From an uncultured Clostridium sp. (GTDB lineage: Bacteria > Bacillota > Clostridia > TANB77 > CAG-508): a stretch of 64,000 nucleotides of DNA. Under the pieces are notes generated by a model. That model searched no databases, was not told the DNA's origin, and saw nothing but the letters and a program-made list of their open reading frames with translations. Of this stretch, positions 63,323 through 64,000 are shown in pieces (within the stretch, counting starts at the first letter, position 1; the number at the start of each line of letters is the position of its first letter). The translations under genes were made by a program, and so were the position numbers. The DNA lies in assembly GCA_948470605.1 (NCBI GenBank), contig CAOKPI010000001.1, forward strand, positions 6,466 to 70,465, in the 5' to 3' direction.

Positions 63323-63352
63323 TTGACATAAGGTATAAAAAAGTAGTATAAT
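63323..63352 (+). promoter_or_regulatory. promoter of the type III TA locus
   Basis: TTGACA - 18 nt - TATAAT. Confidence 0.6.
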
Positions 63353-63386
63353 TAATATACTAGAAGAGTAATCTATTTAGATTACT

Positions 63387-63510
63387 AATAGGAAGTTCTT
63401 ACCTAAAAAGAGAACGATTTAAAATTAGGTAAAGTTCAAGCCTTATAAATGAACTGATTTGAAATTAGGTAATGCTTAAGCCTTATAAATAAGCAGTTTT
63501 AAATTAAGGG
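63387..63510 (+). ncRNA. ToxI/AntiQ-like antitoxin RNA: about 3 tandem ~40-nt repeats
   Basis: AAATTAGGTAAAGTTCAAGCCTTATAAATGAACTGATTTG and AAATTAGGTAATGCTTAAGCCTTATAAATAAGCAGTTTT, plus degenerate flanking units, directly upstream of a ToxN-like gene. Confidence 0.7.
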
Positions 63511-63535
63511 GGTACATTTGAAAAAGTGTACTCCC
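63508..63535 (+). terminator. hairpin between antitoxin repeats and toxin gene
   Basis: GGGGGTACA-10 nt-TGTACTCCC, then a T-rich tract. This matches the ToxIN-style internal terminator position. Confidence 0.55.
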
Positions 63536-63561
63536 TATGTTTTAATAAGAAATGAGGAAAA

Positions 63562-64000
63562 ATGGAAGAGTTACTATTTTATATAGTTGATAAAAATTAT
63601 ATTAAATATTTAAGTAAATTTGAAAGTCATGTAAGTTATAATAAAGATGAAATAGGACATAGTAGACCTTATTTAGGAATTGTATTAAAGATAGAGAATT
63701 ATAAATATTTTGTGCCATTATATTCATATAAAGAACATTATAAAAAATATAAAAATAATCCTAGCTTCTTTTTTATTTATGATAGAAAGAACAATCCTTT
63801 AGCAATTGTTAAATTCTCTGCTATGATTCCAGTTCCTAATAGTATAAAAGTAACATCATTACTAGAATATAATGAAAGTGACAAAAAATATAAAGATTTA
63901 ATATCAGCAGAATATAGATATATAAATTCTAATAAAGAAGAGATATATAAAAGAGCAAATAAAATGTATATTGCTGTAACAAAGCACAAAAATAATTTTC
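63562..64000 (+). CDS. ToxN/AbiQ-family type III toxin endoribonuclease (3' end beyond window)
   Basis: Own translation MEELLFYIVDKNYIKYLSKFESHVSYNKDEIGHSRPYLGIVLKIENYKYFVPLYSYKEHY... It matches the ToxN pattern FY.I...YI.YL..F...V....RP..GIVL.I....Y..PL.S.K. Confidence 0.75.
   Translation, partial: MEELLFYIVDKNYIKYLSKFESHVSYNKDEIGHSRPYLGIVLKIENYKYFVPLYSYKEHYKKYKNNPSFFFIYDRKNNPLAIVKFSAMIPVPNSIKVTSLLEYNESDKKYKDLISAEYRYINSNKEEIYKRANKMYIAVTKHKNNF

Follow-up and report, generated by a model that had tools for sequence, protein, structure and literature searches.

Do a short array of tandem repeats and the truncated reading frame behind it, at positions 63323-64000 of a 64,000-nt stretch of DNA from an uncultured Clostridium sp., make up a toxin–antitoxin system of type III, and is that system of a new type? 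The whole stretch, called the window here, originates from a metagenome-assembled genome (MAG; GCA_948470605.1, 1.93 Mb in 73 contigs) and covers positions 6,466-70,465 of the forward strand of contig CAOKPI010000001.1 (G000:C1:6466-70465; G, C and L numbers are our handles for genomes, contigs and loci). The contig extends beyond the window end. The locus is very probably a complete type III toxin–antitoxin cassette of the ToxIN/AbiQ family at 63323-64068. The order on the plus strand is promoter, leader hairpin, the repeats R0, R1 and R2, terminator and toxN, with about 0.75 kb between promoter and stop codon. In the ToxIN family of bacterial phage-defence modules, an RNA-cleaving toxin is kept in check by a small RNA made of repeats. 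This is not a new system type; the locus is an ordinary ToxIN member and the annotation is sound.

A toxN gene behind an array of RNA repeats

The toxin gene starts with the ATG at 63562 on the plus strand, and codons 1-146 (63562-64000) lie in the window. The gene crosses the window end, which explains its absence from the list of open reading frames (ORFs), as a preliminary description of the window had stated. Extension along the contig completed the ORF at 168 amino acids (aa) with a stop codon at 64066-64068 in window-equivalent numbering (G000:C1:70027-70533, L003:1028-1534). With the Pfam family ToxN_toxin (PF13958; cut-off 25 bits), the truncated ORF scored 128.2 bits (E 4.2e-37) over positions 3-140 of the 159-position profile, and the full ORF scored 152 bits. 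The PADLOC model for AbiQ was matched with an E value of 1.8e-34. Over its whole length, the complete toxin could be aligned with ToxN of Bacillus thuringiensis (4ATO), AbiQ (4GLK), ToxN of E. coli (7D8O) and ToxN of Pectobacterium atrosepticum (2XD0). An AlphaFold2 model (pLDDT 85.9, pTM 0.84) had 4ATO, 4GLK, 2XD0 and 7D8O as the top four Foldseek matches, with TM 0.78-0.82 and E values of 7e-12 to 7e-11. CptN (4RMO) followed with TM 0.58, then MazF and Kid with about 0.3. The model points to a ToxN fold, that of an endoribonuclease related to Kid and MazF. Members of the protein clusters of close relatives were unnamed in the collections searched, except for one JGI entry, "protein AbiQ".

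The active site of E. coli ToxN comprises Lys33, Thr52, Ser53 and Lys55 (PMC8860590). The alignment equivalents are Arg35, Tyr54, Ser55 and Lys57. Arginine at the Lys33 position is known from clusters 4 and 5 of E. coli ToxN (PMC8860590). Pro52, Ser55, Lys57 and Gly39 are invariant across both paralogue groups. With three of the four catalytic residues kept, activity is likely, and the catalytic set is probably functional. One homologous gene in another species (L032; CANRKF010000004.1, 2700-3504) deviates at the catalytic Ser55, which is otherwise invariant, by coding for tyrosine (APLYYYK), and has about 65 extra nt between terminator and start codon; this copy may be inactivated or re-wired.

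The elements named in the preliminary description were all found: a promoter followed by a short hairpin, about three tandem repeats of ~40 nt (two good ones, a degenerate one upstream and a partial fourth), a hairpin terminator and a ToxN/AbiQ-like ORF. The sigma-70-type promoter (63323-63352, plus strand) agrees with the consensus at 12 of 12 positions, with the -35 hexamer TTGACA (63323-63328), an 18-nt spacer and the -10 hexamer TATAAT (63347-63352). Both hexamers are at least 90% conserved among the homologous loci that reach that far upstream. Transcription is predicted from the promoter position to start at about 63359. Some 8 nt from there, a perfect 9-nt inverted repeat, AGTAATCTA/TAGATTACT, forms a leader hairpin of 8-9 bp (63367-63386, plus strand), present in both the minimum free energy and the centroid fold. 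Three of its pairs are preserved in the alignment consensus via two-sided changes in single species, and a toxin-less array (L039) carries a further covarying version, AGCAAT/ATTGCT. The hairpin may be a 5' cap that stabilises the antitoxin precursor.

Tandem Repeats Finder (TRF) reported 2.0 copies of a 39-40-nt period with 78-87% match at 63393-63490, and a pairwise repeat search aligned 63416-63455 with 63456-63495 at 83% identity. Inspection by eye and TRF added the degenerate upstream copy at about 63388-63415 and the partial fourth copy at 63496-63506, which enters the terminator. Among periods of 30-50 nt, tandem identity peaked at 82.5% with a period of 40, a value that none of 300 dinucleotide shuffles reached (mean 56.7%, maximum 69.7%).

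A Rho-independent terminator (63507-63543, plus strand) separates repeats and toxin. It consists of a 13-bp stem at 63507-63536, followed by ATGTTTTAAT with a T run at 63540-63543. This was the sole terminator-like site of the 1.3-kb region in a consensus scan, in which shuffles gave 0.2 sites per region. The stem is conserved among 34 sequences, and two of its pairs covary. Terminators between repeats and toxin of type III loci determine, through partial read-through, how much antitoxin RNA is made relative to toxin mRNA (PMC3401426), and by analogy the terminator of this locus probably does the same. A Shine-Dalgarno-like GAGG (63554-63557, plus strand) was read from the sequence 4 nt upstream of the toxN start codon and is kept in most homologous loci.

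The repeat length of ~40 nt and the copy number of about three had been taken as signs of a distinct subfamily. This did not withstand comparison with the 67 toxIN loci in Table 2 of Blower et al. (2012; PMC3401426), which have a mean repeat length of 38.1 nt (31-62), a mean copy number of 2.8 (1.9-5.6) and a mean toxin size of 168.0 aa. A locus with 39-40 nt, about 2-3 copies and 168 aa represents the family average, and the inference of a distinct subfamily fails. The 36-nt x5.5 array of P. atrosepticum is the unusual one. Judged from its sequence, the cassette is apparently functional and its dimensions are entirely typical of ToxIN.

The initial assignment had placed the architecture with ToxIN, AntiQ-AbiQ and CptIN. 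The ToxIN/AbiQ part was upheld, membership in CptIN was not (fold TM 0.82 for ToxN vs. 0.58 for CptN). CptIN of Eubacterium rectale (4RMO) shares the logic of repeats, terminator and endoribonuclease, and its host also belongs to the gut Clostridia. It was rejected on the fold comparison, with 12% identity and an E value of 8.6e-3, and on ToxN_toxin being the only Pfam match. The repeats of cptIN average 44.8 nt (PMC3401426). TenpIN, with a TenpN toxin and 39-57-nt repeats, was rejected as well: Pfam, NCBIfam and PADLOC matches were limited to ToxN/AbiQ, and no TenpN structure was among the fold matches.

Repeat units, predicted processing and known relatives

The two full repeats are predicted to be processed into a 40-nt unit R1 (63424-63463, plus strand), AUUAGGUAAAGUUCAAGCCUUAUAAAUGAACUGAUUUGAA, and a 39-nt unit R2 (63464-63502, plus strand). 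Stem 1 of R1 pairs AGG (63427-63429) with CCU (63441-63443), and stem 2 pairs GUUCA (63434-63438) with UGAAC (63450-63454). R2 has the same stem 1 (AGG 63467-63469, CCU 63481-63483), and its stem 2, GCUUA (63474-63478) with UAAGC (63490-63494), differs from that of R1 by two compensatory pair changes. The stems of both units are perfect at the window locus. The unit pattern AGG-UAAA-GUUCA-AG-CCU-UAUAAA-UGAAC leaves loops of 4, 2 and 6 nt. The published ToxI template has two interleaved stems of 3-4 bp with loops of 3-4 nt (1a-2a), 1-2 nt (2a-1b) and variable length (1b-2b), and ToxI of Group I has a last loop of at most 7 nt (PMC3401426). The units of the window fit this pseudoknot template and belong to Group I.

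Pairing was counted on 59 distinct units from 34 loci. Stem 2 was paired in 98% of cases, with compensatory double changes at three of its five positions. Its sequence depends on the unit type: GUUCU/AGAAC in R0, GUUCA/UGAAC in R1, GCUUA/UAAGC in R2 and GCUCA/UGAGC in a lineage with a single full unit (L036/L037). In register, the whole structure was paired in 97% of the cells, compared with 29-56% after sliding the 3' partners by 1-3 columns. No shuffle reached the observed covariation score. RNAalifold recovered five helices for the whole leader, namely the leader hairpin, the R0 hairpin, R1 stem 1, R2 stem 2 and the terminator, with covariation in the leader hairpin and the terminator. The fold of the 188-nt precursor had a z score of -4.1 relative to shuffles.

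The degenerate first repeat R0 (63388-63423, plus strand) has a stem 1 of AGG (63390-63392) and CCT (63402-63404) and a stem 2 of GTTCT (63395-63399) and AGAAC (63411-63415). Its loops are shorter, the 5' AAAU site is missing and the 3' tail is normal up to the first AA|AU site. The R0 hairpin appears in the consensus fold and the R0 core is 87.5% identical across 33 loci. Two loci (L028 and L031) have lost stem 1 of R0 and retained the hairpin. A rather unlikely possibility is that the three units are deliberately non-equivalent, with R0 and the leader hairpin as a 5' stabiliser and with R1 and R2 stems that are mutually non-complementary, which would let each unit fold locally in the precursor. 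An obligate hetero-assembly of R1 and R2 was rejected because four species have R0 and only one full unit, either of the R2 or of the R1 type.

The known cut sites of ToxN are AA|AU for the P. atrosepticum enzyme, GAA|AU for that of E. coli and AAA|AA for that of B. thuringiensis (PMC8860590). The sequence AAAUUA is invariant at the R0/R1 and R1/R2 junctions (32 of 32 loci at each), while the preceding base varies freely. It contains the AA|AU motif and, where a G precedes, also the GAA|AU of the E. coli enzyme; the R1/R2 junction of the window reads literally GAAAU (63461-63465). Most loci have AAAU at the R2/terminator junction. None of the junctions contains five A's in a row. The invariant AAAU at both junctions and the published AA|AU and GAA|AU specificities predict ToxN cuts after 63423, 63463 and 63502, which would release R1 and R2 with the ends given above. 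R0 would remain joined to the 5' hairpin.

The closest characterised relative is the ToxIN system of B. thuringiensis plasmid pAW63, whose toxin 4ATO was the best sequence match (E 7e-24, residues 6-165 vs. 9-170) and the best fold match (TM 0.82, 32% identity). It also comes from a member of the Firmicutes, shares the HSRPY and FVPL-S motifs and has the same order of promoter, repeats, terminator and toxin. Its array is short, with 2.9 x 34 nt. In contrast, the repeats of the window are 39-40 nt long, and the units are non-identical and conserved position by position. The AAA|AA site of B. thuringiensis needs five A's, whereas the junctions here are (N)AAAU like the P. atrosepticum and E. coli motifs. 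The conserved 5' hairpin at the start of the window array may be a further difference.

The archetype, ToxIN of P. atrosepticum plasmid pECA1039 (2XD0/2XDB/2XDD), has the same locus architecture (PMC3401426) and a toxin of the same fold (TM 0.81). It follows the same interleaved-stem pseudoknot template with a short middle loop, and its AA|AU motif is present at each junction of the window. Its ToxI repeats are near-identical. The 5.5 x 36 nt of that array contrast with one degenerate, two distinct and one partial unit here. The toxins share 25% identity. The archetype is borne on a plasmid of a Gram-negative bacterium, the window locus is inserted in the chromosome of a low-GC MAG from the gut Clostridia.

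AbiQ/antiQ of Lactococcus lactis plasmid pSRQ900 (4GLK) is related by the PADLOC match and by the fold (TM 0.78), and its PL-x-SYK motif likewise has an amino acid other than threonine before the catalytic serine. The antiQ array is short, with about 2.8 repeats. Identity to AbiQ is 27%, and the repeats are of another sequence and length. For the plasmid-borne AbiQ, abortive infection is proven; for the window locus it is proposed by analogy. The E. coli ToxIN (7D8O; PMC8860590) resembles the window locus in the fold of the toxin (TM 0.80), in the active-site serine and lysine and, in its clusters 4 and 5, in an arginine at the Lys33 position; its GAA|AU motif can be read as such at the R1/R2 junction of the window. 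Differences are the overall identity of 27%, the tyrosine in place of Thr52 and arrays of 3-5.6 repeats (PMC8860590).

Conservation, toxin loss and mobility

A homologue scan with one genome per species detected 33 homologous loci in 33 other species, all of them MAGs of uncultured gut Clostridia, with toxins of 77-94% identity. The repeats were present in 33 of 33. Neither of the two outcomes named as refuting in the preliminary description, a toxin that fails to match the family profiles and homologous loci that lack the repeats, was observed. All 31 loci that extend far enough upstream keep the full order of promoter, hairpin, R0, R1/R2 and terminator; in the remaining L009 and L010, contig ends interrupt the leader, and repeats and terminator are retained. 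Four loci have one full unit fewer. The toxN genes have a median dN/dS of about 0.10-0.12 at dS values of up to ~2. Relative to the window, the R1 core is 96.1% and the R2 core 98.3% identical (31 loci), second codon positions of toxN are 92-97% and third positions 59-92% identical. The R2 core is more identical than the second codon positions, so the RNA is under at least as strong a constraint as the protein. Purifying selection is strong on RNA and protein alike. R1 is the weaker unit: a stem-breaking 1-nt deletion occurs in four loci and a mismatch in two, and the unit is absent in two. R2 is absent solely in the L036/L037 lineage.

The loss of the toxin is one-sided. Five of the 33 toxN genes (L033-L037) are broken next to intact arrays. 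The damage consists of three deletions of 1 nt and one of 11 nt, a G inserted in TTTGGTG and a GAA codon mutated to the stop TAA. Programmed +1 frameshifting at CGG does not explain the broken genes and was rejected, since no lesion is located at CGG. An RNA-based search yielded three more arrays beside dead toxin genes: L041 has a truncated toxN with stops, L040 an internal deletion of ~390 nt, and L039 (G090:C43) has the first four toxN codons left, with a housekeeping gene downstream. L039 retains promoter, covarying leader hairpin, R1, R2 and terminator, all intact. An extra solitary R1-like unit is located just upstream of its promoter (L039:579-610). Altogether, the array is intact at eight loci, with promoter, hairpin, repeats and terminator, while the toxin next to it is broken or deleted, and 28 of 28 intact toxins have an upstream array. 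A toxin that is lost while the array is kept, and never the reverse, is the pattern predicted by an active toxin with a protective RNA. Assembly errors in MAGs may explain some of the single-base lesions in toxN, not the larger deletions.

The distribution is patchy. In a sample of 151 genomes of the host family, gut Clostridia with 0.9-1.9 Mb, PF13958 genes were present in 57 genomes, which represent 31 of the 50 genera, and the maximum was five matches per genome. Many of these matches are fragments or carry stop codons, which suggests that ToxN-family genes turn over rapidly in the host family. The ToxI type of the window was found in 5 of the 151 genomes, each of a different genus, and was missing from the other five sampled genomes of the host genus. 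Exact 33-nt matches of R2 occur in five genomes of five genera.

A second complete ToxIN locus is encoded outside the window in the same genome (G000:C20:7500-8310; L004:2500-3309). Its promoter agrees with the consensus, and a similar leader (TATAATGAATATACTAAAAGA...) with an analogous hairpin is present, as is a terminator. Its repeats (3.2 x 38 nt, L004:2592-2710) share the pseudoknot topology with GGU/ACC and CCUCA/UGAGG stems, and its ToxN has 180 aa and is 33% identical to the window toxin. The junctions are AAAG rather than AAAU, suggesting a different cut specificity. No NCBIfam model matched the toxin of either ToxIN locus in the genome.

The cassette is mobile. DNA similarity between species starts at 63315-63321, just before the -35 hexamer, and ends at 64044-64076, at the stop codon. 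The arsR/cadA or corA neighbours of the window were found at 0 of the 33 homologous loci, by which vertical inheritance at a fixed site was rejected. The cassette is located at a different site in nearly every species, between housekeeping-looking genes; named by eye, neighbours elsewhere are pflA/pflB-like, rny/ymdB-like, transketolase/ftsEX-like, murF/ddl-like and thrS-like. A genome of the same genus provides an empty site (G152:C13, L047), in which the arsR/cadA and corA homologies are ~100 nt apart compared with ~1480 nt at the window locus. This spacing places the cassette within an insertion of ~1.45 kb in the arsR-corA intergenic region (62855 to ~64332 window-equivalent; 62855-64000 in the window). 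No conserved terminal or target-site repeats were seen in the interspecies comparison, which included no systematic search for them. Exact copies or mimics of the R1 and R2 cores were absent from the IMG/VR viral contigs. The genome contains no second genuine copy of the insert flank at 62855-63314, and a repeat element at this place is unsupported. A tentative scenario, which we consider unlikely, is that in these small-genome gut Clostridia the bare ~0.75-kb cassette, from promoter to stop codon, is the unit of horizontal spread into intergenic sites between housekeeping genes without a recombinase of its own, and that arrays of promoter, hairpin, repeats and terminator that outlast a decayed toxN are retained as expressed 'anti-addiction' RNAs, by which the cell is immunised against renewed invasion by cassettes of the same type.

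The flanks of the insertion, ~460 nt upstream (62855-63314) and ~265 nt downstream (64069-64332), have no ORF over 47 aa. The upstream flank contains a terminator-like hairpin with a T7 run (~63020-63065, plus strand) and a promoter-like site (63072-63100) followed by the GC hairpin TTGGCAACATCTGTTGCCAA (63106-63125). Its part from ~63170 is common only to the closest cassette relatives L005, L007, L008 and L035. Outside the insertion, a second perfect promoter, TTGACA-18-TATAAT (minus strand, 62833-62804, in the region 62780-62840), precedes an operon of an ArsR-family repressor and a cadA-like P-type ATPase. The equivalent part of the empty site (L047:1255-1320) has a long palindrome that resembles a repressor operator. 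About 5.5 kb downstream of the cassette, two adjacent minus-strand ORFs of 241 and 138 aa (L003:7019-8168, window-equivalent 69553-70702) resemble one split IS-type transposase gene, named by eye.

Proposed function, alternatives and significance

Expression of the cassette would start from the single strong promoter with a non-coding RNA of ~185 nt that comprises the 5' hairpin, R0 and the full ~40-nt units R1 and R2. A leaky terminator would let a fraction of the transcripts read into toxN for the synthesis of the 168-aa endoribonuclease. Going by the solved ToxIN complexes, ToxN may cleave the precursor RNA of its locus at the AA|AU sites that separate the units. Each released unit is predicted to fold into an H-type pseudoknot with the AGG/CCU stem 1, the 5-bp stem 2 and the loops of 4, 2 and 6 nt, and the single-stranded tails of the unit would fill the active-site grooves of ToxN, resulting in a closed, inactive RNA-protein ring. 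Once transcription of the locus stops, such as during phage infection or after loss of the cassette, the RNA would decay faster than the protein. Free ToxN would then cleave cellular and phage RNAs at A-rich sites and growth would stop.

Several observations weigh against a functional ToxIN cassette of this kind. Stem 1 (AGG/CCU) was paired in 96% of the units and is conserved with zero covariation. Because it never covaries, the case for a pseudoknot over a plain hairpin depends on the match with the published template. Stem 2 shows few independent compensatory events, about four, corresponding to the three repeat types and the L036/L037 lineage. The T run of the terminator is short. An Rfam scan of 62700-64000 at E<=10 gave chance matches to snoRNAs and viral untranslated regions only, with no antitoxin family. 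The catalytic Thr52 of the E. coli enzyme is replaced by Tyr54; AbiQ has leucine there. The neighbouring genes are housekeeping and not defence genes, and the uncultured host has no known phage. A role in abortive infection is suggested here by analogy only.

The last point concerns the purpose of the cassette rather than its identity. The same ToxIN cassette could serve selfish persistence by addiction and post-segregational killing, without meaningful phage defence, an account we regard as possible, if rather less than even in likelihood. It agrees with a ~0.75-kb cassette that stands alone between housekeeping genes outside defence islands, at a site that varies by species, with the patchy occurrence in five genera, with the ~1.45-kb insertion relative to a genome of the same genus and with a frequent decay in which the toxin goes first. 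Type III loci have also been reported to stabilise plasmids (PMC5086642). On the other hand, the P. atrosepticum ToxIN and other type III members confer abortive infection (PMC3401426, PMC5086642), and the strong purifying selection on the toxin over ~28 species suggests a benefit for the host. Addiction and defence are not mutually exclusive roles.

Two further readings question the function of the toxin or of the RNA in the window. A decaying copy, with a toxin catalytically impaired by the tyrosine at the Thr52 position and with repeats as relics, is very improbable. Tyr54 itself, the degenerate R0, the R1 stem defects in relatives (deletion in four, mismatch in two) and the five orthologues with frameshift, truncation or stop would be in line with it. 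However, the ORF is intact here in a clade with dN/dS of ~0.1, PLYSYK is a clade-wide sequence and not a private mutation of the window locus, Ser55 and Lys57 are invariant, AbiQ likewise lacks the threonine, and the stems of R1 and R2 are perfect at this locus. Still harder to credit is that the repeat region is a cis-acting 5' leader or attenuator of toxN instead of a trans-acting antitoxin RNA. Its position in the 5' untranslated region with a terminator at the end resembles riboswitch-type and attenuator leaders, but the units match the ToxI pseudoknot template with a ToxN cut motif at each junction, and the Rfam scan gave no leader family. A pure cis leader is contradicted by the arrays that are kept, with promoter and terminator, after deletion of the toxin (L039, L040). 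A ToxIN/AbiQ-family cassette with a trans-acting RNA antitoxin and a probably active toxin is the reading preferred here.

The finding opens no new question: ToxIN systems, the range of repeat lengths, genomes with more than one toxIN locus and the abundance in Firmicutes, with Clostridia among them, were all described in 2012 (PMC3401426). Of minor interest are the conservation of the 5' hairpin, the units that are non-identical and specific for their position, the mobility of a bare cassette and the orphan arrays. The practical value is in annotation, for the RNA array and toxin of this window, for the second locus in the genome and for at least 33 other species of uncultured gut Clostridia. 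The locus adds a well-conserved pair of ToxI and ToxN, whose pseudoknot occurs in two distinct natural variants and whose cut site is predicted to be AA|AU; the pair may be used for studies of specificity.

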